Below, one piece after another: positions 34,208 to 50,300 of a stretch of 64,000 bases of DNA. The notes below the pieces were generated by a model, which saw only the letters and a list, made by a program, of their open reading frames with translations, had not been told where the DNA came from and made no database searches. Source of the stretch: Corallococcus exiguus. GTDB lineage: Bacteria; Myxococcota; Myxococcia; Myxococcales; Myxococcaceae. The position numbers were made by a program, and so were the translations under genes. Every line of letters starts with the position of its first letter. Positions within the stretch are counted from its first letter, which is position 1. The stretch is taken from the NCBI RefSeq assembly GCF_017302975.1, contig NZ_JAFIMT010000003.1, one strand, 5' to 3'.

Positions 34208-34407
34208 GGACGGGACTCCAGGCTGCAAAGGGACTCCTTGCGTAACACACCGGGGCTTCACCGCCAGTCCGCCCCATGTTGCCCAGGTGTCACGCCAACC
34301 CCCTGGATTCTGGGCAGTTGTCGAATTGGGAGCCGGACCTGGACGGGAGTACACTCCAGGCTCCCCCCACCGGGGCCTTCCGCCCCCTCCGGATTCTTCC
34401 AGGATTC

Positions 34408-36174
34408 ATGGCACAGCCCCAGAAAGTCACGGACGCGACCGCGGAGCCGGAGCAGTCACCGGAGGTCCGCGAGAAGGTGGAGTTGGCGAAGACGTTCGCG
34501 TTCCACCTGCTCAAGGGCATCAAGCAGATTGGCATGTACCGCCACAACGAGGCGCGCTTCCCGGAGTTCCTCTCCAAGGCGCTGGAGGCCATCTCCACGT
34601 ACACGGAGAAGTTCGGACCGCTCTCGCTGAAGGTGGAGCAGCAGAACTTCATGCTGCACGGCGAGCCGCTCTTCTCCGAAGAGTCGCCGCTGCCCTACAA
34701 GTTCTTCCGCGACGGCATCCGTCAGCTCATCTTCCGGCCGGGGCTGCCGCTGGAGGAGCTGGTCACCCTCACGCTCATCGCGCTGTCGGAGCCGGAGCGC
34801 GGCGCGGACGACGTGCTCGCGCAGCTGTGGCGCGCGGGCATGCAGCAGGTGGAGTACGTGGTGGTGGAGGGCTTCTCCATGGAGGGCGCCTCCGAGGACG
34901 AAGTCCAGGTGGAGGTGGACAAGGTGGTGGGCTACCTCTACTCCCGCCTCCAGACGAACTCGGATGACTTCCTGCGCTTCGCGCGCGTGTCCGCGGAGGA
35001 CCTGGACGCGAAGCTGGACGGCGTGGAGCAGATCCGCGGCCTCGTCGTGGGCGGCCGGCACGCTTCCGACGACCTGAAGGCCCGCATCCAGCGCGAAATC
35101 ACGGAAGAAGAGAACGCGCGCCTCTTCCCCAAGCTGGTGGGCGCGGTGTTCCAGGTGGTGGAGGGCGGCGTGGATGACGCGGCGCTGCTGGAGGAAATCT
35201 TCCTGCAGCTGTTGGACATGCTGCTGCTCCAGGACGACTTCGCCACGGTGAACCAGATCGTCCTCAAGCTGCGTGCGCTCTCCCAGCGCGAAGGCGGCGA
35301 GGACCTGGGGCGCATGCTCAACAACTTCCTCCACAAGATGGGCGAGGAGCAGCGCCTCACGCGGCTGGGCGAGTCGCTGAAGACGACGCGCACGCGGCAG
35401 CCGCAGGACGTGACGCGCTACCTGCAGGCGCTGGGCGTGGACTCGGTGCTGCCGCTGCTCAGCGTGCTGGAGACGATTGAACTGCCGGAGAACCGACTGC
35501 TCGTGGGGGACGTGCTGGCCACGTTCGCGCGCGACCTGCCGGAGCCCTTCGTCGCGCGCCTGTTGTCGGACCGGCCGCAGACGGTGCGCGACATGGTCTA
35601 CATCCTGGAGAAGAGCAACCACCCGGAGCGGGTGAAGATGTTCGGCCAGGTGATGAAGAGCCCCAACCTGGTGGTGAAGCTGGAGGTCATGCAGATCATC
35701 GGAAAGGGACGCACGGCGGAGGCCCGGCGCATCATCCAGGACGCGCTCACCGACGGCGTCTCCCAGGTGCGCATGCTGGCCGCGAAGCTGCTGCCGGAGT
35801 TCGACCGCGAGCGGGCCTTCACGGACCTGGTGCGGCAGGTGCGCGAAGCGAGCTGGGACAAGAAGACGACGGACGAGAAGTCCGCCTTCTACGCCGCCAT
35901 CGGGGCCACCAACCTGCCCGCCGCGCTGTCCATGATGCAGCAGCTGCTGACGGTGAAGCCGTCCCTGCTCAACAAGCGGCGTGTGATGGAGGACAAGCTG
36001 CTGGCGATTACGGGCCTGGGCGGCGCGGGCTCCATCCAGTCCTACAAGATGTTGCAGGGCGTGTTGGAGGACAAGGCTCAGCCCTTGGACGTCCTCACCG
36101 CGGCCCGCAAGGCGATGTACCAGACGCGCAAGGCCCTGTTCGGGGACTCGGCGCTCCCGGAAGAGGCGAGCTGA
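34408..36174 (+). CDS. HEAT/PBS-lyase-type repeat protein of unknown function.
   Basis: The likely start is MAQPQKV. The sequence is helical and repeat-rich, and the C-terminal half has HEAT-like units (…VRMLAAKLLPEF…). The stop lies 4 nt before the downstream HD gene. Confidence 0.6.
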   Translation: MAQPQKVTDATAEPEQSPEVREKVELAKTFAFHLLKGIKQIGMYRHNEARFPEFLSKALEAISTYTEKFGPLSLKVEQQNFMLHGEPLFSEESPLPYKFFRDGIRQLIFRPGLPLEELVTLTLIALSEPERGADDVLAQLWRAGMQQVEYVVVEGFSMEGASEDEVQVEVDKVVGYLYSRLQTNSDDFLRFARVSAEDLDAKLDGVEQIRGLVVGGRHASDDLKARIQREITEEENARLFPKLVGAVFQVVEGGVDDAALLEEIFLQLLDMLLLQDDFATVNQIVLKLRALSQREGGEDLGRMLNNFLHKMGEEQRLTRLGESLKTTRTRQPQDVTRYLQALGVDSVLPLLSVLETIELPENRLLVGDVLATFARDLPEPFVARLLSDRPQTVRDMVYILEKSNHPERVKMFGQVMKSPNLVVKLEVMQIIGKGRTAEARRIIQDALTDGVSQVRMLAAKLLPEFDRERAFTDLVRQVREASWDKKTTDEKSAFYAAIGATNLPAALSMMQQLLTVKPSLLNKRRVMEDKLLAITGLGGAGSIQSYKMLQGVLEDKAQPLDVLTAARKAMYQTRKALFGDSALPEEAS

Positions 36175-36178
36175 CACC

Positions 36179-37489
36179 ATGGCCGACAATCTGAAGATCA
36201 ATCAGACCCAGGACGAAAACCTGGGCGAGTACGGTCGAGAGCACAACGAGAAGCTCCAGAACCTGTCGCGCTCCATGCTCGCCGGCCTCTACATGCTGGT
36301 GCGCTCGGTGAAGATGTATGACCCGGAGAACGCGGTCTTCGAAAAGCCGCTCCACCAGCTCCAGGACATCATCAACCAGATCATCGGCAAGGAAGGCCGG
36401 CTGGAGCTGACGGGCGTCAAGGACTCGTTCTACCTGAACGGCATGCTGGTGAAGGTGGACCTCAACTCCATCGAGAACCAGCGCTACCTGCTGTCGGAGC
36501 TGCGCTCCAAGGACGTGGGCGGCATCACGCTGACCAAGCCCGTCACCACGCAGGAGCTGAAGAACTTCGTCTGGATCTTCAGCAAGGAGCAGTCCACCGC
36601 CGCGGAGGAGGACGGCCTGCAGGGGCGCAAGCTGCTCAACATGCGCGTGGCGAAGTTCTCCAAGCTGAAGGAGAAGCTGAACAAGGACATGGACAACCCG
36701 GGCGACCAGAAGGTCGACCGCAAGAAGTACGCGATGACCGTGTACGCCCGCGCGGTGTTCTTCCTGCAGAAGTACCTGGAGTCCGTGCGCGCGGGGAAGC
36801 CCATTGGCTCCTCGCGGGCGCTGCGCCTGGTGCAGGACTTCGTGGACATCTCCTACGATCAGCGCACCCACTTCCTGGGCATGACGACGCAGAAGCGCGA
36901 GGAGGACTACCTCGTCTACCACCAGGTGAACGTGGCGCTGATGTGCATCGTGTTCGGCGCGGAGCTGGGCCTCACCAAGCCGCAGCTGCGAGACCTGGGC
37001 TACATCGCGCTCTTCCACGACGCGGGCATGACGACGCTGCCGGAGGAGCTGGCCACCAAGCGCGGCGCGCTCACCGCGGACGAGAAGACGACGGTGGCCC
37101 GCGCGCCGCTCATCAGCGTGCGCAACATCCTGATGGAGAAGGGCTTCAGCCGCTCCACGCTGCTGCGCGTGGTGACGACGTTCGAGCACAAGACGGACTA
37201 CGGCACCGCGGTGCGGGACGCGCGCGGCAACATCCAGATGATCATCCCCAAGACGAACCTGGGGGTGTACGCGAAGATCATCGCCATCTGCGACGCGTAC
37301 GACGCGCTCACCTCCCGCAGGCCCTACCGGGACGCGTACGGCCCGGAAGTGGCGCTGATGCTGATGTGGACGGAGATGCGCCAGAAGTTCGACCCGGAGC
37401 TGCTGTCCGTCTTCATGCGGGTGATGGCCATCCAGCCCATCAAGGTCCTCTCCCGCCGCCAGCAGCAGATCAGCGTTTCCGGCCTGTAG
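36179..37489 (+). CDS. HD-domain protein of the HD-GYP class with a degenerate GYP motif.
   Basis: The HD motif reads IALFHDAGM and downstream metal ligands read KIIAICDAYDALTSRRPYRDAY. An uncharacterised N-terminal domain of about 250 aa precedes them. Confidence 0.7.
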   Translation: MADNLKINQTQDENLGEYGREHNEKLQNLSRSMLAGLYMLVRSVKMYDPENAVFEKPLHQLQDIINQIIGKEGRLELTGVKDSFYLNGMLVKVDLNSIENQRYLLSELRSKDVGGITLTKPVTTQELKNFVWIFSKEQSTAAEEDGLQGRKLLNMRVAKFSKLKEKLNKDMDNPGDQKVDRKKYAMTVYARAVFFLQKYLESVRAGKPIGSSRALRLVQDFVDISYDQRTHFLGMTTQKREEDYLVYHQVNVALMCIVFGAELGLTKPQLRDLGYIALFHDAGMTTLPEELATKRGALTADEKTTVARAPLISVRNILMEKGFSRSTLLRVVTTFEHKTDYGTAVRDARGNIQMIIPKTNLGVYAKIIAICDAYDALTSRRPYRDAYGPEVALMLMWTEMRQKFDPELLSVFMRVMAIQPIKVLSRRQQQISVSGL

Positions 37490-38498
37490 CCTTCTTCGCC
37501 GCCGGCTTCTTCGCCGCGGGCTTCGCCTTCGTGGGCGGGCCCGCGGGGACGCTCGCCTCGCGCAAGCGCGTGAGCGCCTTCGTGAAGTCCTCCGGGAGGG
37601 GGGCTTCCAGGTCCAACGCCTTGTGGGTGCGCGGGTGCTCGAAGGCCAGGCGCCACGCGTGCAGCGCCTGGCGGCCCACCGCCTCCTGCGCTTCCGCCAC
37701 CGCGCCCTTCGCCTTGCGGCCGGCGCCGTAGAGCGCGTCGCACAAGAGCGGGTGTCCGGCTTCCGCCAGGTGGACGCGGATCTGATGCGTGCGGCCGGTG
37801 AGCAGGTCCACCTCCACCAGCGCGGCGCCGTCGAAGGCCTCTCGCACGCGGAACAGGGTGATGGCGGGCTTGCCCTCCTTCACCTTGCCGGTGAACTTCT
37901 GGCGGTGGATGGGGTGGCGGCCGTAGAGCGTCTCGATGCGCCCTTCCGCGGGCGGCACGCCGTGCACCAGGGCCAGGTACGTCTTCTGGACCTCGCGCGT
38001 CTTGAAGGCCTTCTGGAGCGCCACCAGGGCCTGCTCGTGCTTGGCGACGACGAGGCAGCCGGTGGTGTCCTTGTCCAGGCGGTGGACGATGCCGGGGCGC
38101 AGCTCGCCGCCGACGCCGGCCAGGTCCTTCACGCGGTGCAGGAGCGCGTTGACCAGCGTGCCGGACGCGTGGCCCGCGCCCGGGTGCACCACCATGCCGG
38201 CGGCCTTGTCCACGACGACGAGGTCGCGGTCCTCGTGCAGCACGGACACGGGCAGGGCTTCCGCCTGCGGGATGGCCGCGACGGGCGCGGGGACGTGGAG
38301 GGCCAGCAGCTCGCCACCGCGCAGACGCTGCGCGGCCTTGGCGGGCTTGCCGTCCGACAGCACGTGGCCGTCGGCGATGAGGCCCTGGAGGCGGGAGCGC
38401 GTGAGGTCCGGGAACGCGCGGGCCAGGTACGCATCCAGCCGCTCACCCCGGGCTTCGGGGAGGGCACGGTGCTCGCGCGTGTCGGGTGCGGCCACCAC
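37470..38498 (-). CDS. rluD: RluA-family 23S rRNA pseudouridine synthase (RluD-like) with an N-terminal S4 domain and a Lys/Ala-rich tail.
   Basis: The N-terminus is S4-like (RLDAYLARAFPDLTRSRLQGLIADGHV). The catalytic motif is HRLDKDTTGCLVVAK. The gene overlaps the convergent HD gene by about 20 nt. Confidence 0.85.
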   Translation of the reverse strand: MVAAPDTREHRALPEARGERLDAYLARAFPDLTRSRLQGLIADGHVLSDGKPAKAAQRLRGGELLALHVPAPVAAIPQAEALPVSVLHEDRDLVVVDKAAGMVVHPGAGHASGTLVNALLHRVKDLAGVGGELRPGIVHRLDKDTTGCLVVAKHEQALVALQKAFKTREVQKTYLALVHGVPPAEGRIETLYGRHPIHRQKFTGKVKEGKPAITLFRVREAFDGAALVEVDLLTGRTHQIRVHLAEAGHPLLCDALYGAGRKAKGAVAEAQEAVGRQALHAWRLAFEHPRTHKALDLEAPLPEDFTKALTRLREASVPAGPPTKAKPAAKKPAAKKATGRKR

Positions 38499-38509
38499 GG
38501 CTGAGGGCG

Positions 38510-38773
38510 CTACCAGATCTTCGACTTCACGTGCGCCTTGGAGCGCAACACGATGTCGTTGATGGCGCGCTCGAAGAAGTTCGCCTGGGTGCTGATTTCC
38601 GCGCTCACGCGGCTCTTGTAGAGCGCGCGCCCCTCTTCCAGTTCCTCCTTGAGGACCTCGAAAAGGTTGTCCTGCTCGATGCCCTTGATGATCTTCTGCT
38701 CGTTGTAGAGCGAGATATCGGAGGCGATCGCGCGAGCGAGTCGCATCGCCTTGACCTTTTCCTCTTCCGTCAT
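38510..38773 (-). CDS. Small (87 aa) acidic/basic hypothetical protein.
   Basis: It has clean GC3 bias and sits 11 nt upstream of rluD on the same strand. The sequence is MTEEEKVKAMRLARAIASDISLYNEQKIIKGIEQDNLFEVLKEELEEGRALY…; I do not recognise a family. Confidence 0.55.
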   Translation of the reverse strand: MTEEEKVKAMRLARAIASDISLYNEQKIIKGIEQDNLFEVLKEELEEGRALYKSRVSAEISTQANFFERAINDIVLRSKAHVKSKIW

Positions 38774-38850
38774 CGTGCCACTACTTAGGCACCCACCCCG
38801 TGCGAGTCAACTTTTCCCGTCGCACGGGAGGGGGTCTGGCCCACTCCCGG

Positions 38851-40599
38851 TCAACGGCCCGACTTGGCGGGTTTCTCGGAGAACAGCGCGAGGTAGCTCT
38901 TGGACACGCGCAGGGGGTCCAGGCCCAGCTCGCGGGCGAGGTTCATGAGGATGCCGCGCAGGTACACGGTGGTGGGGAGCGCGGTGTAGCGGTCCGCCTC
39001 CACGTTCTCCAGGTGACGCACGGAGATGCGGGTGCGGTCGGCCAGCTGCTGGATGGAGAGGCCGCGGGCCTCGCGGACGCGGCGGAGCAGTTCGCCGTTG
39101 AACTCGGCGTCCGAGGGGATGTCCACGCCCCGGGGACGGGCCTCGCGGACCTTGGCGGCCACCTGGGCCAGCGCGGACTCGGCGGTCGCGATGGCGGAAT
39201 CCTGCGCCAGGACCTGGGCGTCCCCGAGCTTGCGGACCGTGGGGCCTTTCACGGTCCCCGGCCCCGTGGGGCCCTTCTGCGACGGACGCGAGTCGATGGG
39301 GCGAGACGACGTCAGGGGCCGAACGGCGGCGCGGGAGGCCCCGGTGGCCGGGATCCGGGCCAGCGCGGTCGTACTGGAGTCCAGGGGCGGAGTGCCCGGG
39401 GCGGGGTTCGGATCCGACTCGCCCTGGGTGGTCGTCACCGCGGCCGCGTCGGAGGCGGGCTCGGGGCTGGCGGCCACGGATCCGGCCTCCGGGGCCTGGG
39501 GTGCGGCGCTGGCTTCCGGCGCGGGCGTCGCGGCCACCACTTCGGGCACGTGAATCGCGGCAACCAGCGCGGAGGGCGTGGCGCTCTCTTCCGGCGTGAG
39601 CGGCGCGGCGGGCGTGGCGCTGACCTCGGCCACGGGCGACGCGGCCACGGGATGGGGGTCCGTCACGGGCTGGGGAGCCGGGACCTCTGTTGCCTCGGAG
39701 GCAACAGGCGCATCGAAGGCCTCCACACGGTCCGGTGCGACCGCTGCGGAAGGCTCCGCGGTAACGGGAGGCTCCGCGGCCGCGGAAACGGATCCGGCCG
39801 GAGGCACGGCTTCCGCAGGCGACGCGACCACATTGGCAGGGGTCTCGACCGGGCCAGGCGCCTCGGCCTTGGGTGCCGAGGCAGCCGGCGTGTTCTCGGC
39901 AATGGAGGACTTCACGTCCACGGCGGGGGCCGGCGCTTCGGTGGCTCCCCTGCCCTGGCCGCGCAGCGGAGTCGCTGGGACGTAGACGAACGACAGGCTC
40001 CGGGTGAACGAGGCGCGGAAGGCCTCCACCACCGCCACGCCACCCACCATCACCGGCTCGGAGGGCACGCCTGGCGCGTCCATCCCCGAGGACTCCTGCC
40101 GCTTCGACTCCTCACCCCGCATCCGCTCCTCGCTCTTTCCAGGCGTCCCGCTCGCGCGAGGCGCCTCCCCTTCAGTGTCGCTCACGGACGTCGCGGCCTT
40201 CAGTCGCGACTCCGCCTCCAGCCTTTCGGCATCCACCGCGCCCGCGGCCTTCGCCAGCGCCGCCGCCGCGGTGGCCAGGGCCTCCGCGACACGCGAGGCC
40301 GAGTCCACCTTGTCCGCGGCCTCCGCCGTCGCGGCGGCCTTCGCGAGCCGCTCCGTGGACAGGCCGATGGAGCGGTCATACTCGACGCGCAGGTCCGCGT
40401 CGGTGAGCATCTCCATCGCCTCGTTCATCCGTTCACGCAGCGCTTCCACCTGATCCGGATCCCCCAGCGCGTACACCGCGATGGAATCCGGCGAATACAG
40501 CTCCATCAGGCGCTGGTGGGCCGCGCGGATCTCCGCGTCGGTCGCCGTGGGCGGCACCTCCAGGATTTCGTAGTAGGTCTGCTGCGCGAAGGGCTTCAT
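38851..40599 (-). CDS. J-domain-like N-terminus (HPD motif absent), long Ala/Pro/Glu-rich disordered linker, and a C-terminal RodZ/XRE-type HTH.
   Basis: The N-terminus is QQTYYEILEVPPTATDAEIRAAHQRLMELYSPD. About 400 aa are low-complexity. The C-terminus reads LSIQQLADRTRISVRHLENVEADRYTALPTTVYLRGILMNLARELGLD. The start is ATGA-coupled to the stop of the ParA-like gene. Confidence 0.6.
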   Translation of the reverse strand: MKPFAQQTYYEILEVPPTATDAEIRAAHQRLMELYSPDSIAVYALGDPDQVEALRERMNEAMEMLTDADLRVEYDRSIGLSTERLAKAAATAEAADKVDSASRVAEALATAAAALAKAAGAVDAERLEAESRLKAATSVSDTEGEAPRASGTPGKSEERMRGEESKRQESSGMDAPGVPSEPVMVGGVAVVEAFRASFTRSLSFVYVPATPLRGQGRGATEAPAPAVDVKSSIAENTPAASAPKAEAPGPVETPANVVASPAEAVPPAGSVSAAAEPPVTAEPSAAVAPDRVEAFDAPVASEATEVPAPQPVTDPHPVAASPVAEVSATPAAPLTPEESATPSALVAAIHVPEVVAATPAPEASAAPQAPEAGSVAASPEPASDAAAVTTTQGESDPNPAPGTPPLDSSTTALARIPATGASRAAVRPLTSSRPIDSRPSQKGPTGPGTVKGPTVRKLGDAQVLAQDSAIATAESALAQVAAKVREARPRGVDIPSDAEFNGELLRRVREARGLSIQQLADRTRISVRHLENVEADRYTALPTTVYLRGILMNLARELGLDPLRVSKSYLALFSEKPAKSGR

Positions 40600-41672
40600 G
40601 GGATGGCGGACTCGGGGGAAATGCCGTCGAGCGTCAGGATACGCGCGGCGATGCGCTGGAGTCCCTGGGATACGGGCGAATCGGGCCGCTCGAGGAGCAC
40701 CGGCTTGCGCTTGCGCACCGCGCGCCACGCTTCATCGTCGTGGCGCAGGGCGCCCAGGTCATCCATGTCGATGCCGAAGAACTTCTTCCACGCGGACACC
40801 ATCGCGGCGCCGACCTTCTCGTCCGCGTCCGTGCGCGCCTGGTTCACGACGAGCCGCACGTGGAACGCCGCCAGCTCGCGCTCCAGCCGCTCCGCGTCCG
40901 AAGGGGCCTTGCGCCGCACCTGCGCGACGATGTCGTGAAGCGTCCGCAGGCCGCCCTCGCGGGTGGACAGCGCGCCCTCGACCATGTCCTGGATGCCGTA
41001 GCGCGCCTCCGTCTGCTGGAGCTTGCGGAAGAAGGCCGCCTTGACGAAGCGGTACGCGTTCTCCACGGACGTGGGCTCCGGCAGCACGACGAGCAGGCCG
41101 TGGTCCGCGATGAGAAAGAAGTCGAGCGTATTGAAGCTGGTGCCCGCGCCCAGGTCCAGGATGAGGTAGTCCGCCGTCGTCTGCGACAGCAGCGTGCGCA
41201 GGAGCTTCTGCTTCTGCGCGTACTTGAGGTTCGCCGCGTCCAGCGAGTCCTGAGCGCCGGCGATCAGCGACAGCCCGGGCACGCCGGTGGCGACCATCAC
41301 CTCTTCGAGGTTGGCCTTCCCACGCCGCAGGAAGTCCGACAGCGTGGACTCCGGAGGCCCCACGCCCAGGCAGGTGTGCAGGTTGGCGCCGCCCAGGTCG
41401 GCGTCCACGAGCAGCACCTTCTGGCCTGCCTGCGCGAGCGCGACGCCCAGGTTCGCGGACACCATCGACTTGCCGATGCCGCCCTTGCCGCCGCCCACCG
41501 CGATGATCCGCCGCGCACGGGAGCGCCGCGCGAGGCCCGCGGGCCCCGAGGGCGATGCGTCATTGGCTGCACGCGGCGAGGTGCCAGCCAGTGGGGCGGG
41601 AGCGGATGGAGGCAAGGGGGCGGGCTTCACGAAGGCTCGCATCAAAGCCCGTCCTACCGCCCGAGTCGACAC
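40596..41672 (-). CDS. ParA/MinD-family P-loop ATPase with an N-terminal extension of about 70 aa.
   Basis: The deviant Walker A is AVGGGKGGIGKS, followed by LLVDADLGGANL and Walker B LILDLGAGTS. The N-terminal tail is Ala/Pro/Ser-rich. Confidence 0.8.
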   Translation of the reverse strand: MSTRAVGRALMRAFVKPAPLPPSAPAPLAGTSPRAANDASPSGPAGLARRSRARRIIAVGGGKGGIGKSMVSANLGVALAQAGQKVLLVDADLGGANLHTCLGVGPPESTLSDFLRRGKANLEEVMVATGVPGLSLIAGAQDSLDAANLKYAQKQKLLRTLLSQTTADYLILDLGAGTSFNTLDFFLIADHGLLVVLPEPTSVENAYRFVKAAFFRKLQQTEARYGIQDMVEGALSTREGGLRTLHDIVAQVRRKAPSDAERLERELAAFHVRLVVNQARTDADEKVGAAMVSAWKKFFGIDMDDLGALRHDDEAWRAVRKRKPVLLERPDSPVSQGLQRIAARILTLDGISPESAIP

Positions 41673-41764
41673 CCCGCCATTTCACGGCCGACCCTGTAGC
41701 ACCCGGAGCCCGCGCCCCGCCGCCAGGAGGCTCGGGGAGCAGGCGGCCGGGGAGCCGTTCGCTG

Positions 41765-42358
41765 TCACTCGTCGAGCAGTTCGACGTTCCAGTACGACAC
41801 GTCCGCGAGGTGCAGGAACGGCAGCCACTCCCGGTAGGTGATCTTCCGGATGGCGCCGCGGAAGAGCGGTGTCCAGCGCGGTCGTACGGGTTTCTTGAGC
41901 AGCCGCATCCCGGCCTGTTCCGGAGTGCGCCCGCCCTTCTTCAGGTTGCAGGGCACGCAGGAGCACACGACGTTCTCCCACGTCGTCTTGCCGCCCTGGG
42001 TGCGAGGGCTGACGTGGTCCAGGTTGAGTTCGCTGCGGGGCAGCTGCTTCGCGCAGTACTGGCAGGTGTCGTTGTCGCGCGCGTAGATGTTGAGGCGCGA
42101 GAAGCGAACCTTGGCGCGAGGCAGGTGGTCATACGCGCCGAGCACGAGGACGCGCGGCACGCGGATGGTGCGGTCGATGGTGGTGATGCTGTCCTGGGTG
42201 GCGCTGAGGGCGGCCCAGTCCTCGAACTCATACAGCCGGTACTGCTCGTCGATGGCTTTGGCGACGCCCTGATACAGCAGGGAAAAGGCCCGTTTGACTG
42301 ACGTCACGTGAACCGGTTGGTAGTACCGGTTTAAAACGAGCACGGCGCTGTTGATCAT
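41765..42358 (-). CDS. HNH endonuclease-family protein.
   Basis: The HNH core is CQYCAKQ…LDHVSPRTQGGKTTWENVVCSCVPCNLKKGG. The start (MINSAVLVLNRYY) is ATGA-coupled to the selA stop. Confidence 0.7.
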   Translation of the reverse strand: MINSAVLVLNRYYQPVHVTSVKRAFSLLYQGVAKAIDEQYRLYEFEDWAALSATQDSITTIDRTIRVPRVLVLGAYDHLPRAKVRFSRLNIYARDNDTCQYCAKQLPRSELNLDHVSPRTQGGKTTWENVVCSCVPCNLKKGGRTPEQAGMRLLKKPVRPRWTPLFRGAIRKITYREWLPFLHLADVSYWNVELLDE

Positions 42359-43749
42359 GGCTGGCTTCCCGAACGGGCGGCCGCCACAGCCTGCGCGACC
42401 TGCCCCAGGTCCTCCTCTGAGAGACACCGGACGTCGAGAACCACCTCGTCATCCGCAATCCTGCCAATAACGGGCACCTCGGCTTCGCGCAGACGTTCCA
42501 GGAATACTTTCGGCGCTTCTACGGTGAGGCTGCAAGCGTAGGAAGGCAACCGGGCCAGAGGCATGGCACCTCCACCTACTTGTCCGTCCACGGACATGAC
42601 ACGGCCCTCCACGCCGCGCGCCGCGAGCAGGGCCGCCAGGCGTTCGGCACGGGATTGCAACAAAGTCGGCTGCTGGGTGAGCAGGCTTTGGGTGGGGACC
42701 GCGTCCGCACGGCCATCCCGGTACAGCTCCAGCGTCGCCTCCAGGGCCGCGACCGTCATCTTGTCGACACGCAGCGCACGTGTGAGCGGGTGGGATTTGA
42801 TGCGCTGGAGCAGGTCCGCGCGGCCGACGATGACGCCGGCCTGCGGGCCGCCGAGGAGCTTGTCGCCGGAGAACGCGACGACGTCCGCGCCATCCCGGAT
42901 GGCCTGGCCCACGGTGGGTTCCGGGGTGAGACCCGGGCCGGACAGCGGCACGAGCGCGCCGGAGCCCAGGTCCTGGAACACGGGCACGTCACGGGAGCGT
43001 CCCAGTTCGGTGAGCTCCGCGAGGGACGCCTCTTCCGTGAAGCCGACAAGCACGAAGTTGGAGCGGTGGACCTTCACGATGAGGCCGGTGTCTGGACTCA
43101 GTGCGTTGGCGTAGTCCGCGCGGCGGGTGCGGTTGGTGGTGCCCACTTCGACGAGCTTCGCGCCGGACTGGCGCATGACGTCCGGGATGCGGAAGCCTCC
43201 GCCGATTTCGACGAGCTCACCGCGGGAGACGATGCATTCGCGGCCGGAGGTGAGCGCGGCGAGGACGAGCAGCACGGCGCCCGCGCAGTTGTTGACGACG
43301 ATGGCGTCCTCCGCGCCGGTGAGCGTGCGCAGGAGGCCGATGAGTGGGGCGTAGCGGCTGCCGCGTTCGCCTTCGTCCAGGTCGTATTCGAGGTTGGAGT
43401 AGCCCCGGGCCACGGAGACGACGCGTTCCACGGCTTCTGGAGCGAGCGGTGCGCGGCCTAGGTTGGTGTGGAGCACGACGCCGGTGGCGTTGATCACGCG
43501 CCGGAGATTCGGCGTGGCCAGTGACGCGAGCGCCGACTCCACGTCCTCGTCCTCGAAGGGGCGCGGATCCCCCCCGAGCAGCCTTGCGCGCACGCGTTCG
43601 ACGGCGAGCCGCAGCGCCGCGACCGCGCGGGCATGGGGAAGGTTCGCGAGCCGGGACTCCAACGACGGCCGATGCAGGAGTTGTTCAATGGAAGGAAGGC
43701 CGCGCAAGAGCGCATTCTTCCCTCCGGAGGAGTTCGACGCGGCACCCAT
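42355..43749 (-). CDS. selA: L-seryl-tRNA(Sec) selenium transferase SelA.
   Basis: The match is full-length, with NATGVVLHTNLGRAPL and the PLP-Lys motif VAFSGDKLLGGPQAG. I chose the internal Met (MGAASNSSGG). Confidence 0.85.
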   Translation of the reverse strand: MGAASNSSGGKNALLRGLPSIEQLLHRPSLESRLANLPHARAVAALRLAVERVRARLLGGDPRPFEDEDVESALASLATPNLRRVINATGVVLHTNLGRAPLAPEAVERVVSVARGYSNLEYDLDEGERGSRYAPLIGLLRTLTGAEDAIVVNNCAGAVLLVLAALTSGRECIVSRGELVEIGGGFRIPDVMRQSGAKLVEVGTTNRTRRADYANALSPDTGLIVKVHRSNFVLVGFTEEASLAELTELGRSRDVPVFQDLGSGALVPLSGPGLTPEPTVGQAIRDGADVVAFSGDKLLGGPQAGVIVGRADLLQRIKSHPLTRALRVDKMTVAALEATLELYRDGRADAVPTQSLLTQQPTLLQSRAERLAALLAARGVEGRVMSVDGQVGGGAMPLARLPSYACSLTVEAPKVFLERLREAEVPVIGRIADDEVVLDVRCLSEEDLGQVAQAVAAARSGSQP

Positions 43750-44008
43750 GGTCCCGGAGTCTACCCGGACCACCGTGCCCGGGGGCGTGCCCGGCGGCTT
43801 TTCTCCACCGCAAAGCCATACATCAATAACAGACGTCCCTCTCCTCACCCTGAGAGGACCCGGTGGAGGTCACTCAGCCGGAAACACCGTTTCGATGCGA
43901 CTGCAAGCCCCCTCCCCTGGGTCAAAAGTCGCCGTGAAGCGGGAGATCCAGCGGCTTGTCGGAGCCCAGGATGTTTCGTGAGACATTCGCGGGGTTCTCA
44001 ACGTTTAC

Positions 44009-47000
44009 ATGCCCTCCGGGGCGATGATGGAAACCATGACGTCACCCTCGGACGACAAGCGGGCCCTGCTGGCGAAGCTCCTCCAGGAGAAGGTCGCGGC
44101 CCCCAGGCGCTCTCCGCTCTCCTTCGCGCAGGAACGGATGTGGTTCCTCGAGCAGTGGAGCCCCGGGGGCTCGGCGCTGAACATGCCGGTGGGCGTGCGA
44201 CTCCTGGGCGAGCTCCAGGCACCGGTGCTCCAGCGCGCGCTCCAGGCGCTGGTGATCCGCCATGAGACGCTGCGCACCACCTTCGCGCTGTCGGACGGAC
44301 GGCCCGTGCAGGTCGTCGCCCCCACGCTGGAGGCGGCGCTTCCCTTGGAGAATCTGCAGGCGCTTCCCCCATCAGAGCGGGAGGCCCGTGCCGTCCAGCG
44401 CGTCGCGGAGGTGGCTCGTGAGCCCTTCGACCTGGAACGGGGGCCGCTGTTCCGGGCGCGCCTCTTCCGACTATCCGCGCGCGAGCACCTGTTGCTCTTC
44501 GCCATGCACCACGGGGTGTCGGACGCATGGTCCATGGGCGTCGTCGTCCGCGAGTTGACGGCCCTCTACGCGGCCTTCCAAGAGGGCAAGGCTCCCGAGC
44601 TGACTCCCCTGCCCCTGCAGTACGGCGACTACGCCAGCTGGCAGCGTCGGGCCCAGGAGGGCGAAGAGGCGGAGGCGCGGCTCGCCTGGTGGCGCGAGCG
44701 CATCGACCCCCACGCGTTGCTGGAGCTGCCCACGGACAAGCCGCGTCCGGCGGTGCTGGGCACTCGCGGCGCGCGCGAAGCGCTTGAGCTGCCCGCCGCG
44801 CTCACCGCGGACCTCAAGGCGTTCGCTCGGAAAGAGGGCCGCACGCTGTTCGTCACCCTGCTGGCGGTGTTCCAGACCCTGCTCCACCGCTACACCGGCC
44901 AGGAGGACCTCGCCGTCGGAACGCCCGTGGCCAACCGCCCCCGCGCGGAGCTGGAGGGGCTCATCGGCCTGTTCGTCAACACGGTCGTCCTGCGGACGGA
45001 CCTGTCGGGTGCTCCGTCCTTCCGGGAGCTGCTGGCGCGGCTCCAGTTGGTGGCGCTCGATGCCTTCGCTCGCGAGGAGCTTCCCTTCGAGCGGCTGGTG
45101 GACGCCCTCAAGCCGGGCCGCGACCCGAGCCGCGCTCCCCTCTTCCAGGCGATGTTCGTCCTCCAGAACGCACCGCTGCCGCCCCTGGAGGTGCCGGGCC
45201 TCCAACTGGAGGCGCGTCCGGTGGACACGGCTTCCGCCCAGTTCGACCTGACGCTCATCGCCGAGGACCTGCCCCAGGGACTGCGCCTCACCGCGGAGTA
45301 CCCCACGGACCTGTTCGAGCCCGGCACCGCCCGCCGGATGTTGGCGCACCTGGTCCGCCTCCTGGAGGGAGCCCTGGCCGCGCCGCACGAGCGCCTGTCG
45401 CGGCTGCCCCTGCTCACCCCGGACGAGCGCGAACAGTTGCTGGGAGCGTGGAGCGGCGCTTCCGCGCCCTATCCCCACGAGGACGGTCTGCACACCCTCT
45501 TCGAAGCCCAGGCGCGCCGCACGCCCGACGCGCCCGCGCTCACCTTCGAGGGCGAATCGCTGAGCTACCGGCAGCTGGACGCGCGCGCCAACCAGTGGGC
45601 CTGGCACCTGCGAGGGCTGGGCGTGGGGCCGGAGACCTACGTGGGGCTTTGCGCCGCGCGCTCGTTCGACATGGTGGTGGGCATGCTCGCGACGCTCAAG
45701 GCGGGCGGCGCCTATGTCCCGTTGGATCCCACCTATCCCACGGCGCGGCTGGCCTTCATGCTCCAGGACTCCGCCGTGAAGGTGCTGCTGGCCCACCGGC
45801 CCTTGCTCGCGGGACTGCCCTCCGCTCCGGGCGCGCGCGCGGTGTGCTTCGAGGATGGGGTGCCGGACGCGGACACCTCGCGGGCGCCTCCTGGAGCGCC
45901 CCTGCCGGACGGCCCCGCCTACGTCATCTACACCTCTGGCTCCACGGGCCAACCCAAGGGCGTCATGTGCACGCACCGCGCGGCCTGCAACCTGGTGGTG
46001 CACGAGGCGCGCGTCAGCGAGCTGGGCCCGGGCTCTCGCGTGCTCCAGTTCTCCAATCCCGGCTTCGACGTTTCCGTGGAGGAGATCTTCGCCACCCTCA
46101 CGGCCGGCGGCACCTTGTGCCTGGCGCCGGTGGAGCGGCTGATGCCCGGCGAGCCGCTGCACCAACTGCTGAAGCAACAGGCCATCACCGTGCTCAACGC
46201 CACGCCCACGGCGCTCGCGGCCACCGACGCCACGGGCCTGCCCGCGCTGCGCACCGTCTTCTCCGGTGGAGAGGCGTGCACCGCGGAGTTGGTCGCGCGC
46301 TGGGGCGAGGGCCGGCGCTTCATCAACGGTTACGGGCCCACGGAGGTGACGGTGACGGCCACCGCGACGGAGGTCCGGCCGGAGGGCCGCGCGCCGCCGC
46401 TGGGCCGCCCCATCCCCAACGTGCGCGTGTACGTGCTGGACGCGCGGCTATCGCCGGTACCGGTAGGTGTCCCCGGCGAGCTTTGCGTGGGCGGCGTGGG
46501 CCTCGCGCGCGGATACCTGAACCTGCCGGGCACCACGGCCGAGCGCTTCGTGCCGGATCCGTACGCGTCCGAGCCGGGCGCGCGCCTCTACCGCACGGGC
46601 GACCGGGTGCGCTGGCGGCCGGACGGGGAGCTGGAGTTCCTGGGCCGGCTGGATGGCCAGGTGAAGCTGCGCGGCTTCCGCATCGAGCTGGGGGAGATCG
46701 AGGCGGCGCTCCGTCAGCACGCCGCGGTGGAAGAGGCCGCCGTGCTCATCCAGGACACGCCCGCAGGGGGCCAGCGGCTCGTCGCGTGGCTCGTCCCGGC
46801 CACGGCGGGCCAGCCACCCACCGCGACAGCGCTGCACGCGTTCCTCCTGGAGCGGCTTCCGCCGCACATGGTGCCCTCCGCCTTCGTCGCCGTGACCGCG
46901 TTCCCACTCACCGCCAACGGCAAACTGGATGTTCGCGCGCTTCCGCCACCCACGGCGGGTCAGCTGGAATCGGGGCGAACGTTCGAGGCGCCGCGCACGG

Positions 47001-47359
47001 AGCGGGAGGAGCAACTGGCCCGGCTCTGGAGCGAGGTGCTCCAGGTGGAGCGCGTGGGCCTGGATGATGCGTTCTTCGAGCTGGGCGGCAACTCGCTGCT
47101 CGCGCTGCGGCTGCACCAGCGGCTGCGCGCGGAGCTGGGCGTGGAGCTGCCGCTGACGGTGCTCTTCCAGCACTCCACGGTCCGGGCCCTGGCGGAACGC
47201 CTGGCGCAGGGTGGCGGATCCGACAGCGGGGCGAAGTCCGGACGCGACCGGTCTCGCCGGCGGCAGGCCTTCGCTCGCAAGACGGTGGCCGCACCCGCGC
47301 GGGACTCGGACGACGACGTGGAGCTGGAGCCGGAGCTGGACGAGGACGCGGATGTCTGA
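44009..47359 (+). CDS. Non-ribosomal peptide synthetase, single module C-A-T; first gene of the biosynthetic cluster.
   Basis: The C domain carries HHGVSDAWS. A-domain core motifs are present (YVIYTSGSTGQPKGV, NGYGPTEVTV, GELCVGGVGLARGY, YRTGD, GRLDGQVKLRGFRIELGEIE, and a KLD Lys in LTANGKLD). The PCP motif is FFELGGNSLLAL. Confidence 0.9.
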   Translation: MPSGAMMETMTSPSDDKRALLAKLLQEKVAAPRRSPLSFAQERMWFLEQWSPGGSALNMPVGVRLLGELQAPVLQRALQALVIRHETLRTTFALSDGRPVQVVAPTLEAALPLENLQALPPSEREARAVQRVAEVAREPFDLERGPLFRARLFRLSAREHLLLFAMHHGVSDAWSMGVVVRELTALYAAFQEGKAPELTPLPLQYGDYASWQRRAQEGEEAEARLAWWRERIDPHALLELPTDKPRPAVLGTRGAREALELPAALTADLKAFARKEGRTLFVTLLAVFQTLLHRYTGQEDLAVGTPVANRPRAELEGLIGLFVNTVVLRTDLSGAPSFRELLARLQLVALDAFAREELPFERLVDALKPGRDPSRAPLFQAMFVLQNAPLPPLEVPGLQLEARPVDTASAQFDLTLIAEDLPQGLRLTAEYPTDLFEPGTARRMLAHLVRLLEGALAAPHERLSRLPLLTPDEREQLLGAWSGASAPYPHEDGLHTLFEAQARRTPDAPALTFEGESLSYRQLDARANQWAWHLRGLGVGPETYVGLCAARSFDMVVGMLATLKAGGAYVPLDPTYPTARLAFMLQDSAVKVLLAHRPLLAGLPSAPGARAVCFEDGVPDADTSRAPPGAPLPDGPAYVIYTSGSTGQPKGVMCTHRAACNLVVHEARVSELGPGSRVLQFSNPGFDVSVEEIFATLTAGGTLCLAPVERLMPGEPLHQLLKQQAITVLNATPTALAATDATGLPALRTVFSGGEACTAELVARWGEGRRFINGYGPTEVTVTATATEVRPEGRAPPLGRPIPNVRVYVLDARLSPVPVGVPGELCVGGVGLARGYLNLPGTTAERFVPDPYASEPGARLYRTGDRVRWRPDGELEFLGRLDGQVKLRGFRIELGEIEAALRQHAAVEEAAVLIQDTPAGGQRLVAWLVPATAGQPPTATALHAFLLERLPPHMVPSAFVAVTAFPLTANGKLDVRALPPPTAGQLESGRTFEAPRTEREEQLARLWSEVLQVERVGLDDAFFELGGNSLLALRLHQRLRAELGVELPLTVLFQHSTVRALAERLAQGGGSDSGAKSGRDRSRRRQAFARKTVAAPARDSDDDVELEPELDEDADV

Positions 47360-50300
47360 GGAGACAGCGGACACGGTGGAGCGCATCGCCATCGTCGGCA
47401 TGTCGGGACGCTTTCCGGGCGCTCCCACGCTCGACGCCTTCTGGGACAACCTCCGGCGCGGCGTGCACTCCCGGCGCGAGCTGACCGAGGCGGATCTGGA
47501 GCAGGCCGGTGTGCCCCGTGCCCAGCGCGAGCGGCCGGATTGGGTGCGCGCCGCGTATCCGCTGGATGGGCCCACGCACTTCGACGCGGGGTACTTCGGC
47601 TACAGCCCGCGCGAGGCGGAGGTGCTGGATCCGCAGCAGCGCGTCTTCATGGAGACAGCGCTGGAGGCCCTGGAGGACGCCGGCTACGACCCGGAGCGCT
47701 TCCCCGAGGCCATCGCCGCCTTCGCGAGCACCAGCACCAGCTCGTACCTGTTCCAGGCGCTCCTGCGGCGTCCGGAGCTGTTGCAGACGGTGGGCCTGTA
47801 CAATCTGTCGCTCGCCAACGACAAGGACTTCGTCGCCACGCGCACCTCGCACCGGCTGGGCCTGCGGGGGCCGAGCGCCACCGTGCAGACGGGCTGTTCC
47901 AGCGCGCTGGTGGCGGTGCACCTGGCCTGTCAGAGCCTCTTGTCGGGCGAATGCGAGATGGCGCTCGCGGGCGGCGTCTCCGTGGCGTTTCCGCAGACGG
48001 CCGGGTACGCGTACCAACCAGGGATGATCATCTCCCCGGACGGGCTGTGCCGCGCGTACGACGCCCGCTCGCAGGGCACCATCTTCGGCTCGGGCGTGGG
48101 CGTGGTGGTGCTCAAGCGCCTGTCGGAGGCGGTGCGGGACCGGGACACCATCCACGCGGTCATCCTGGGGTCGGCCGTCAACAACGACGGCTCCGCCAAG
48201 GCGGGCTTCACCGCGCCCAGCGTGGAGGGCCAGGCGGCCGCCATCGCGGAGGCGCTCGGCGTCGCGGGCGTGGAGCCGGAGGATGTGCAGTACGTGGAGG
48301 GGCACGGTACGGCGACGGCCCTGGGCGACCCGGTGGAGGTGGCCGCGCTCAACCAGGCCTTCGGCGGCGCGCGCTCGGGCACGCGGCGCTGCGTGCTGGG
48401 CACCGTGAAGGCGAACATCGGCCACCTGGACTCCGCCGCGGGCGTGGCGGGGCTGCTCAAGACGGTGCTGGCCCTGAAGCACGCGGTCATCCCCCCCACG
48501 CCTCACTTCCAGCAGCCCAACCCCGCCATCGACTTCGACGGTGGCCCCTTCTTCGTCACCGCCGAGCCCAGGCCGTGGGACGGAGCGGTGAAGCGCCGGG
48601 CCGGGGTCAGCTCGTTCGGCCTGGGGGGCACCAACGCCCACGTGGTGCTGGAGGAGCCGCCGCGCGCGAAGGCCGCCGGCACCCGGCGCGCGTGGCACGT
48701 GCTTCCGCTGTCCGCGCGCACGCCCCGAGCGCTGGAGGAGGCCACGTCCCGGCTCGCCGCGCACCTGGAGCGCACGCCGGGCCTGGAGTTGGCGGACGTC
48801 GCGTCCACGCTCCAGCGAGGCCGCCGCACGCACGAGCACCGGCGCGCGCTGCTCTGCCGTGACCTGGAGGATGCGCGGGCCGCGCTTGCGGATCCACGGC
48901 GCCACCTGGGGGGCTCGAGCGTGAACGCGCGCCGCCCCGTGGTGTTCCTCTTCCCCGGCCACGGCAGCCACCACGTGGACATGGGCCGCGCGCTGTACGA
49001 AGCGGAGCCCGTCTTCCGCAAGCACCTGGACGCGTGCCGAGACGCGCTGGCCCCGCATCTGGGCCAGGACCTGTGCTTCGTGCTGTTTCCGGATCAAGCA
49101 CCGCAGGAGGCGGAGGCGCTGCTGGAGCGGATGACCTTCGCGCAGCCCGCGATGTTCGCGGTGGAGTACGCGCTCGCGCAGCTGTGGCGTTCGTTCGGCG
49201 TGGAGCCGGAGGCCATGGTCGGCCACAGCACGGGCGAGTACGTGGCCGCGTGCCTCGCGGGCGTGTTCTCGCTCCCGGACGCGCTGGCGCTGGTGGCCGC
49301 GCGCGGGCGCCTCATGGATGCGCTGCCTCCCGGCGGCATGCTGTCGGTGTCCCTGCCAGAGGACGCACTCGCGCCGCTGCTGCCACCAGGGGTTTCCGTC
49401 GCGGCGGTGAACGCGCCCGCGCTGGTCGTGGTGGCTGGGCCCTCCCAGGCGTTGGAGGCGCTGGAGGCGACGCTGGCCGCCAGGGGCGTGAGCACCCGGC
49501 GGATCCGCGCCCGGCACGCGTTCCACTCAGAGGCCGTGGCGCCGATGGTGGAGGGCTTCCTCCAGGAACTTTCGCGCGTGCGCCTGTCGCCGCCGAAGCG
49601 GCCGTACGTCTCCAGCCTGACCGGGACGTGGATCACCGCCGCGCAGGCGACGGATCCACGAACCTGGGCGAGCCACCTGCGCGAACCCGTCCGCTTCGCG
49701 CAGGCCGCGACCACGCTGCTTGGGAGCACGGAGCGGCTCTATCTGGAAGTCGGTCCGGGCCAGGCGCTGGGGACATTCGTCCGGCAGTGCGCCCCCCCGG
49801 GCAGTCACCCCACCGCCCTCACGTCGCTGCCGCGCCCGCGCGATGGCCAGGACGCCCACCTGCACCTGACGGAGACAGCCGCCCGGCTCTGGCTGGCCGG
49901 CGCATCCATCGACCTGGCGAAGCTGTACGGCAAGGAGCCCCGCCGCCGCGTTCCACTGCCGCCCTACCCCTTCCAGCGGGAGCGCTTCGACCTGCTCGCG
50001 GTCGCGTCCGTTCCGGGTGCCCGGCTTCCGGCCTTCGCGGTGTCCGAGGTCCCCCGCGAGGACGTCACCCCCGCGCTCGAGTGCGCGGCGCCCACGTGGC
50101 AGCGCGTCGCGGGCGCTCCCGTCCCCCGCTTCGATGATCAGCGCTGGCTGGTGATGGAGGATGCGAACGCGCCGGGAGGAAGCATCGCGCGGCTGATGGA
50201 AGCACGAGGCGCGGATATCCTCGCGCTGGGATTGGACGCGGCATGGGCGCCGCTCGAGGAACGGCTGGCGGCCGGTGGAGGGCCGGACCACGTCGCGTTC

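Follow-up and report, generated by a model that had tools for sequence, protein, structure and literature searches.

Three adjacent genes on the minus strand of a 64,000-nucleotide (nt) stretch of Corallococcus exiguus DNA (the window in the following) are considered here: (i) a gene for a deviant-Walker-A ATPase of the MinD/FlhG type with 348 amino acid residues (aa; 40596-41642), (ii) a gene for a 582-aa protein with a J-like domain at its N-terminal and a helix-turn-helix (HTH) domain at its C-terminal end (38851-40599; termed J-HTH), and (iii) a gene for an 87-aa protein (38510-38773). The locus probably comprises two separate things, i.e., the already known polarity gene romX, which encodes the 87-aa protein, and an uncharacterised two-gene ATPase/J-HTH cassette that is kept across phyla. 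Since the GC content at third codon positions ranges from 0.86 to 0.91 and hundreds to thousands of homologues are found for each gene, they are regarded as real genes rather than chance open reading frames (ORFs). The homologue search assigned the 582-aa protein to C. exiguus with 100 % identity.

The initial annotation had described the cassette as a P-loop ATPase (KGGIGKS) with a low-complexity N-terminal tail, overlapping by 4 nt with a protein composed of a DnaJ-like N-terminus without HPD motif, an Ala/Pro/Glu-rich linker of about 400 aa and an HTH of the RodZ type at the end opposite to that in RodZ; each of these elements was recovered. The overlap of the ATPase stop with the J-HTH start is directly readable as ccATGAag (ATGA at 40596-40599, minus strand) and indicates translational coupling of both genes. 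Outside the window, 62 of 88 ATPase/J-HTH pairs, taken from genomes and metagenomes, show the same 4-nt start/stop overlap. Gene neighbourhoods were compared across 80 Myxococcota loci (ATPase identity 50–98 %), for which the ATPase of the window had served as query in a genome scan, and across 80 further loci, obtained by scanning metagenomes with the most distant ATPases. A J/HTH gene is positioned directly downstream of the ATPase gene and on the same strand in 138 of the 139 evaluable loci, in line with the conserved adjacency for which the initial annotation had proposed a co-occurrence check. The loci belong to several phyla: besides Myxococcota genomes they include metagenome loci with a GC content of 0.45–0.73, which exact-sequence look-ups named as metagenome-assembled genomes of Nitrospirota, "Deltaproteobacteria bacterium" or "bacterium". 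Also in agreement with the initial annotation, which did not recognise a named system, the literature search retrieved no publication naming the pair or a MinD-like ATPase with a J/RodZ-HTH partner, and none on the ATPase itself (MXAN_3348 in Myxococcus xanthus).

The longest ORF of the ATPase starts with GTG at 41672 (40596-41672, minus strand); ATG at 41642 is the more likely start, since it yields the 348 aa found in orthologues, whose alignments span 97 % of the query. Besides the Walker A motif (GGGKGGIGKS), the protein contains a further motif, DADLGGANLHT, and residues K53, K58, D80, D82 and D163 are invariant in the family alignment from Corallococcus to Nitrospirota. A P-loop with the signature lysine, the Walker A' and B aspartates and a MinD-like fold place the protein in the ParA/MinD superfamily, and the Pfam models ParA, AAA_31 and CbiA are matched above their cut-offs. 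Because the catalytic residues are invariant, and from what is established for this superfamily, the ATPase is predicted to be catalytically intact and should be active and dimerise with ATP. The N-terminal tail of ~45 aa is variable, predicted to be disordered and limited to certain lineages. The AlphaFold2 model (mean confidence, pLDDT, 75.7) matches FleN, FlhG, MinD and Soj in Foldseek. FleN (5j1j) and FlhG (4rz2) are the best solved relatives (phmmer E-value 4e-26 for 5j1j; Foldseek E-value 5e-17, template modelling (TM) score 0.82 when normalised to target length), at an identity of only ~25 % versus 42–51 % within the ATPase family across phyla. The alignment to FleN stops at residue 212 and restarts at residue 265, thereby delimiting an insert of ~50 aa (about residues 205-258), for which three extra helices are modelled by AlphaFold2 and which is present and conserved in every family member examined, across phyla. 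Beyond the last core helix, the extreme C-terminus varies and shows no amphipathic character, arguing against a membrane-targeting helix of the MinD/FlhG type.

All curated NCBIfam family models, those for MinD, BcsQ, Mrp/ApbC and ParA included, stay far below their cut-offs. The MinD model TIGR01968 yields 84 bits (cut-off 212.9) and the archaeal MinD model 104.3 bits (201.75); the scores are 54.2 (157.85) for BcsQ, 48.5 (450) for MrpORP and 42.7 (348) for ApbC. In case of ParA (NF041546) the score is 34.5 bits (cut-off 180), and the adjacent gene is not ParB-like. Likewise, minC or minE are not found beside the ATPase gene, the neighbours of which are the genes for an HNH endonuclease-like protein and for J-HTH. 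An N-terminal activator motif of the FlhG type is not apparent in the ATPase on inspection, no formal search for it having been made. The initial annotation had allowed for the ATPase falling into a known clade such as FlhG, BcsQ or Mrp; instead, it looks like an orthologous group of its own beside FlhG/FleN and MinD, distinct from FlhG, as far as sequence comparison can tell.

The J-like domain of the 582-aa protein (residues 1-80; 40360-40599, minus strand) is recognised by the Pfam DnaJ model (residues 8-75, 43.3 bits, cut-off 27.8) and modelled by AlphaFold2 with a pLDDT of ~90; Foldseek relates it to solved J-domains with TM scores of up to 0.87 (normalised to target length). E-values obtained with the full-length model are weak, as this model is mostly disordered, and the search served only to corroborate the two folds. 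SPD takes the place of HPD in the 582-aa protein. An alignment including E. coli DnaJ revealed the absence of HPD from all 88 J-like domains (variants SPD, APD, GPG, EPN and others) and a 5-residue insertion after the loop at the HPD position in all 88 homologues. The subsequent linker (residues 81-495, ~415 aa; 39115-40359, minus strand) consists of 23.6 % Ala, 12.8 % Pro and 8.4 % Glu, is also rich in Ser and Val, has an isoelectric point (pI) of 4.7 and is predicted to be disordered (pLDDT mostly <50). Its length differs greatly between genera, such that J-HTH homologues range from 181 to 649 aa: they are short outside the Myxococcaceae, with 181–271 aa in lineages lacking RomX, and reach 649 aa in Corallococcus. 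Transmembrane segments are not detected in the 582-aa protein (maximal Kyte-Doolittle value of a 19-residue window 1.44).

The orthologue of J-HTH in M. xanthus, MXAN_3349, with a J sequence (TYYEILEVPVTAPKEEIRAAYERLTELYAPDSIAVYAL...) matching that of the J-HTH family, is one of six J-domain proteins recovered from DnaK co-immunoprecipitates; it bound MxDnaK1 and MxDnaK2 in a split-luciferase (split NanoLuc) assay, and its expression dropped upon heat shock (PMC11019930). That study addressed neither the lost histidine nor the adjacent ATPase gene.

The C-terminal domain (residues 496-582 plus stop codon; 38851-39114, minus strand) matches Pfam HTH_25 across residues 504-562 (71.8 bits, cut-off 24.6; E-value 4.1e-20) and, more weakly, HTH_31, HTH_19 and HTH_3 of the XRE superfamily. 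With a profile built from 14 diverse J-HTH C-termini, the top matches in the PDB are YmfM of Staphylococcus aureus (3fym, 1e-12), CT009 of Chlamydia (4gqm, 6e-12) and RodZ of Thermotoga maritima (2wus_R, 7.5e-8), the latter being the RodZ chain co-crystallised with MreB; XRE regulators rank behind these RodZ domains (3e-5 or weaker). The invariant residues cluster in helix 4 (E...LPxxVY[LIV][RK]G...A), whereas the putative recognition helix is variable. Helix 4, which makes up the conserved surface of the HTH, reportedly contacts MreB in RodZ (Y53 and Y57 in T. maritima; van den Ent and colleagues, 2010). The initial annotation had suggested a DNA- or nucleoid-binding role for the adaptor. At the two positions corresponding to these tyrosines, most J-HTH family members carry Y...F, and the Myxococcaceae Y...I or Y...M. 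The 582-aa protein has no match to RodZ_C/DUF4115 (PF13464) and stays far below the cut-offs of the NCBIfam RodZ models. It is thus not RodZ, but a soluble protein with the cytoplasmic domain of RodZ.

The 87-aa protein was left anonymous in the initial annotation and listed there as a partner of the cassette. It is however RomX, which is both named and structurally solved: it aligns over its entire length (residues 1-87 of 87) with PDB entry 8ZNA "RomX" at an E-value of 1.7e-46, forms a three-helix bundle and shares 99 % identity with COCOR_03217, 91–93 % with the Myxococcus proteins and 85–93 % with those across the Myxococcaceae. In M. xanthus, romX corresponds to MXAN_3350 (bioRxiv 10.1101/2024.02.20.581209). 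RomX acts together with the response regulator RomR, its partner, and RomR/RomX was described as guanine nucleotide exchange factor for the polarity GTPase MglA, while a paper from 2026 regards RomRX instead as an effector binding MglA-GTP; binding to the receiver domain of RomR and to MglA-GTP is known only for the M. xanthus protein. In the RomX papers covered, the ATPase and J-HTH genes are neither mentioned nor included in the RomR/RomX/MglA/MglB/MglC module. RomX-like sequences also occur as 2–5 tandem repeats in proteins of 350–1000 aa (P0241-P0253, P0274, P0286 and others), and ~1,700 cluster representatives match RomX at an E-value ≤0.001; hence, the RomX fold appears to be a widespread repeat module and not just a stand-alone protein.

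The linkage of romX to the cassette was counted in 66 loci extending at least 1.5 kb past the J-HTH gene. RomX follows the pair in 52 of them, at a distance of 3–105 nt in 50 and of ~1 kb in two. All 52 of these loci also contain RluD and 51 contain HNH, while the other 14 (ATPase identity ≤51 %) lack RomX, RluD and HNH alike. In locus L160, an RluD-like gene directly succeeds the J-HTH gene with no romX in between, so that the arrangement ATPase – J-HTH – rluD may predate the insertion of romX. A 385-aa gene between J-HTH and romX in locus L065 was considered as a module member and rejected, since it recurs in L081 only; the gene in these two related loci (L065, 9717-10874; L081, 2719-3489) encodes a zinc-ribbon membrane protein with a Pro/Glu-rich tail.

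In the window, 77 nt separate the J-HTH stop from the romX start. This spacer contains a σ70-like element (38782-38810, minus strand) composed of a -35 box TTGACT (38810-38805), a 17-nt spacing and a -10 box TAAGTA (38787-38782), which ends 8 nt ahead of the ATG. It emerged only from cross-genome comparison; a generic promoter/terminator scan of 37300-42600 had missed it and flagged nothing in this range. The pattern TTGACn-17/18-TAnnn[AT] is kept in 70 of 90 RomX-bearing loci, in 63 cases ending 6–9 nt before the romX ATG, while the remaining spacer sequence diverges between genera. In the other 20 loci, the spacers are very short and a GGAGG-like Shine-Dalgarno sequence replaces the element. 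Termination of the element 6–9 nt before the ATG predicts a leaderless or near-leaderless romX mRNA. Downstream, only 11 nt separate the romX stop from the start of a gene for an RluD-like 23S rRNA pseudouridine synthase (37470-38498, minus strand; TIGR00005, 283.5 bits, above cut-off), and in Archangium/Hyalangium loci (L023, L029, L033-L037, L039) rluD overlaps the romX stop by 4 nt. The short gap and the overlap suggest that romX and rluD form a unit of their own and are seemingly co-translated. Judged from these features, romX in this genome most likely has a promoter of its own, from which rluD is transcribed as well. Read-through from the cassette is possible, no terminator-like site having been detected, but is not required. 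The promoter-like element and the tighter join to rluD suggest romX to be a lineage-specific neighbour and not a core third subunit; the partner role given to the 87-aa protein in the initial annotation is not supported, the linkage being confined to Myxococcota-type loci. The RluD-like gene, in turn, is probably a conserved neighbour and not part of the ATPase module. That romX adjoins the cassette may point to a functional connection with polarity or gliding, or the gene order could be inherited.

Within the 80 Myxococcota loci, the order HNH – ATPase – J-HTH – romX – rluD held wherever the contig was long enough, while distant ones lack selA as well as the two convergent genes (HD, HEAT). 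The ATPase and J-HTH genes are the only ones common to all 22 long loci without RomX; no further common neighbour was found among these RomX-less loci. In six Nitrospirota loci (L083, L091, L093, L100, L101 and L103) the genes for ScpA, a HEAT-repeat protein and ScpB precede the cassette, with the scpB stop overlapping the ATPase start; this arrangement hints at a chromosome-organisation context in Nitrospirota. Upstream of the cassette in other subgroups, LptF/G or a polyprenyl synthetase is encoded. A general link of the cassette to chromosome condensation was considered and rejected, since ScpA-HEAT-ScpB is confined to the Nitrospirota subgroup.

On these grounds, the cassette is best explained, with somewhat better than even confidence, as a ParA/MinD-type ATPase together with its cognate adaptor, constituting a new subfamily whose partner is of a new kind, next to which romX represents a lineage-specific, probably separately transcribed gene. 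ATP binding would yield the ATPase dimer. By analogy to ParB, MinE, PomX and McdB, the N-terminal end of the partner, i.e., the J-like domain and a conserved N-terminal MK... peptide, would bind this dimer and trigger ATP hydrolysis, while the RodZ-type HTH at the other end would anchor the complex to a scaffold, which may be MreB filaments (as for RodZ) or the nucleoid/DNA. In the Myxococcaceae, the linker would have expanded to the disordered acidic spacer of ~400 aa, and in Myxococcota the cassette would have come to sit immediately 5' of romX. The charges are compatible with such a mechanism, with an acidic J-like domain (pI 4.3) alongside a basic ATPase (pI 9.5) and a basic HTH domain (pI 10). 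J-HTH would accordingly be a cytoplasmic adaptor, with the ATPase-adaptor contact, the binding ends, the scaffold and the polarity role all being inferred.

Several observations weigh against this proposal. Locus L117 (5902-6837), the one exception among the 139 evaluable loci, encodes an ATPase with the family motifs and the insert, but is followed by a gene on the opposite strand rather than by J-HTH. The Myxococcaceae (YLRGIL) have Ile or Met instead of Phe/Tyr at the second aromatic position of the MreB-contact motif of RodZ. Part of the conservation of Lys2 in the partner follows from the ATGA overlap, as codon 2 has to start with A. In view of the signals between MXAN_3349 and DnaK1/2, the J-like domain may engage Hsp70 rather than the ATPase. 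Moreover, the loci compared are the best 80 matches of each of the two scans and are phylogenetically clustered, i.e., not independent.

The interaction with DnaK leads to the main rival explanation, in which the 582-aa protein acts as a true co-chaperone of Hsp70 and recruits DnaK to a particular place or client, with the ATPase regulating or positioning this chaperone hub; a FleN-FleQ-like couple and a three-part module with RomX are graded less likely. The Pfam DnaJ match above the gathering cut-off, the predicted J fold and the recovery of MXAN_3349 with both MxDnaK1 and MxDnaK2 are what a co-chaperone would lead one to expect. Canonical J-domains, however, need the HPD histidine for stimulating the Hsp70 ATPase, and this residue is replaced in all 88 homologues; the disordered region of ~400 aa could make the protein a DnaK client, and this reading would not explain why J-HTH is so strictly coupled to the ATPase gene. 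We consider the co-chaperone reading unlikely. Less still speaks for a transcription-control couple in the manner of FleN-FleQ, with an XRE-type DNA-binding regulator and the ATPase as anti-activator or co-regulator: although FleN and FleN-FleQ complexes are the closest solved relatives of the ATPase and the basic HTH domain falls into the XRE superfamily, its similarity to RodZ domains is far greater than that to regulators, it is helix 4 and not the recognition helix that is conserved, no conserved operator was found, and the AAA+ domain of FleQ, the target of FleN, has no counterpart here. Such a couple appears very unlikely. Finally, automatic JGI labels designate many family members as "flagellar biosynthesis protein FlhG", i.e., as plain FlhG/FleN orthologues regulating flagellar number and placement, and FleN/FlhG are indeed the best PDB matches. 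Against this stand the low identity (~25 %), the extra insert of ~50 aa, the lack of a conserved C-terminal amphipathic helix, a J-HTH partner in place of FlhF or FliM/FliY, and the absence of flagellar genes from the window and the related loci examined; Myxococcus has no flagella. The assignment as FlhG orthologue is effectively refuted.

Whether RomX has to be counted as a component is a question of its own. As implied by the initial annotation, the ATPase, J-HTH and RomX could form one three-part polarity module, in which the cassette gives positional information to RomR/RomX and MglA. Such a module would account for romX lying 3–105 nt behind J-HTH in 50 of the 52 RomX-type loci, even at ATPase identities of 47–51 %, and for the sub-clade of 20 loci in which romX has the GGAGG-like Shine-Dalgarno sequence but no promoter motif of its own; furthermore, MglA-GTP binds MreB in M. 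xanthus (PMC4508894), and the adaptor possesses a RodZ-type HTH. It is at odds with the RomX-less cassettes in 14 of 66 loci, Nitrospirota included, and with the separate promoter-like element and rluD junction of romX in most loci, the window among them. RluD is always and HNH nearly always kept together with RomX, so the linkage may be inherited synteny, and the RomX papers covered do not mention the neighbouring genes. The three-part module is regarded as possible, albeit doubtful. A more far-reaching version builds on the ATPase-adaptor proposal and envisages a phylum-spanning positioning system, whose adaptor would dock the ATPase on MreB via the RodZ-type HTH and which, having been recruited beside romX in Myxococcota, would there supply the cue for placing RomR/RomX and MglA at the poles or at gliding focal adhesions; one may speculate along these lines, but the chances of this version are slim.

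Bacteria place their chromosomes, division sites, flagella, chemoreceptor arrays and carboxysomes chiefly by means of ParA/MinD ATPases, and with each partner type newly defined a new cargo has come to light. Under the preferred reading as ATPase plus cognate adaptor, a clade presently labelled FlhG or "P-loop NTPase" would be mis-annotated and come with one unusual partner in at least Myxococcota and Nitrospirota, the RodZ-type domain of which points to MreB or the nucleoid as scaffold. Since MglA-GTP binds MreB in M. xanthus, an MreB-directed adaptor encoded beside romX would be of interest. MXAN_3348 and MXAN_3349 are testable candidates in this genetically tractable organism. In addition, the annotation of the 87-aa ORF is corrected to RomX, and a leaderless romX-rluD transcript is suggested.

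Upstream of the cassette on the minus strand, the local gene order starts with selA (42355-43848), followed by the HNH_5 endonuclease-like gene (41765 to ~42358, ORF 41765-42427; Pfam HNH_5, 8.6e-15). The probable ATG of the latter (42358) overlaps the selA stop as ATGA (42355-42358), and 122 nt separate the gene from the ATPase ATG. A block of ~30 nt immediately 5' of this ATG (41643-41672, minus strand) is conserved in Myxococcaceae and Archangium-type loci with the pattern [GA]GTCGAC[TG]CGG..GG[TC]AGGACGGG.TTTG, which includes the palindrome GTCGAC and AGGA, resembling a Shine-Dalgarno sequence; judging by the letters, it could be an operator or an element of the 5' untranslated region. Convergent with rluD, the plus strand encodes a HEAT-repeat protein (632 aa) and an HD_5-domain protein (436 aa) at 34276-37489, the latter with a weak match to regulators of the cyclic di-GMP phosphodiesterase type; both genes are syntenic in most Myxococcaceae-type loci and gone in distant ones. 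Very long plus-strand ORFs (1116 aa and >5500 aa) at 44009-64000 resemble non-ribosomal peptide synthetase modules and extend past the end of the window. The other genes of the window that were checked (OPT transporter, sigma factor, transglutaminase, MoxR-type AAA, SLT, TPR and FHA proteins) show no relation to the cassette.

Compared with known systems, the 87-aa gene product corresponds to RomX of the RomR-RomX pair itself, while the cassette also occurs without adjacent RomX. J-HTH shares with RodZ the HTH_25 domain and the helix-4 signature Y-x-[RK]-G, but differs from it by the C-terminal instead of N-terminal position of this domain, the fused J-like domain and the lack of a transmembrane segment and of RodZ_C/DUF4115. 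An N-terminal J fold combined with a second, targeting domain is also known from CbpA, TopJ of Mycoplasma and ZipN/ARC6. TopJ contains an acidic proline-rich spacer and acts at the polar motility organelle; HPD is kept in CbpA and TopJ, and ZipN/ARC6 are HPD-less J-like division proteins. The NCBIfam models for CbpA and TopJ match J-HTH weakly and far below cut-off, and we know of no RodZ-type HTH or pairing with a MinD-like ATPase in any of these proteins. The ATPase resembles FlhG/FleN in its fold, in the deviant Walker A motif with signature lysine and as best match in sequence and structure, and departs from them by the conserved helical insert of ~50 aa, the J-like/RodZ-HTH partner and the non-flagellar context. 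In contrast to ParA-ParB, MinD-MinE and PomXYZ, the partner is unrelated in sequence, and the ParA and MinD models are not reached. The organisation as an ATPase gene directly followed by a partner gene, often with translational coupling, is nevertheless that of ParA-ParB, MinD-MinE and PomZ-PomX/PomY; like ParB, the partner could contact the ATPase with its free N-terminal end, and its anchoring domain is a separate one that contains an HTH; PomXYZ provides a precedent for a positioning ATPase with adaptor in Myxococcus.

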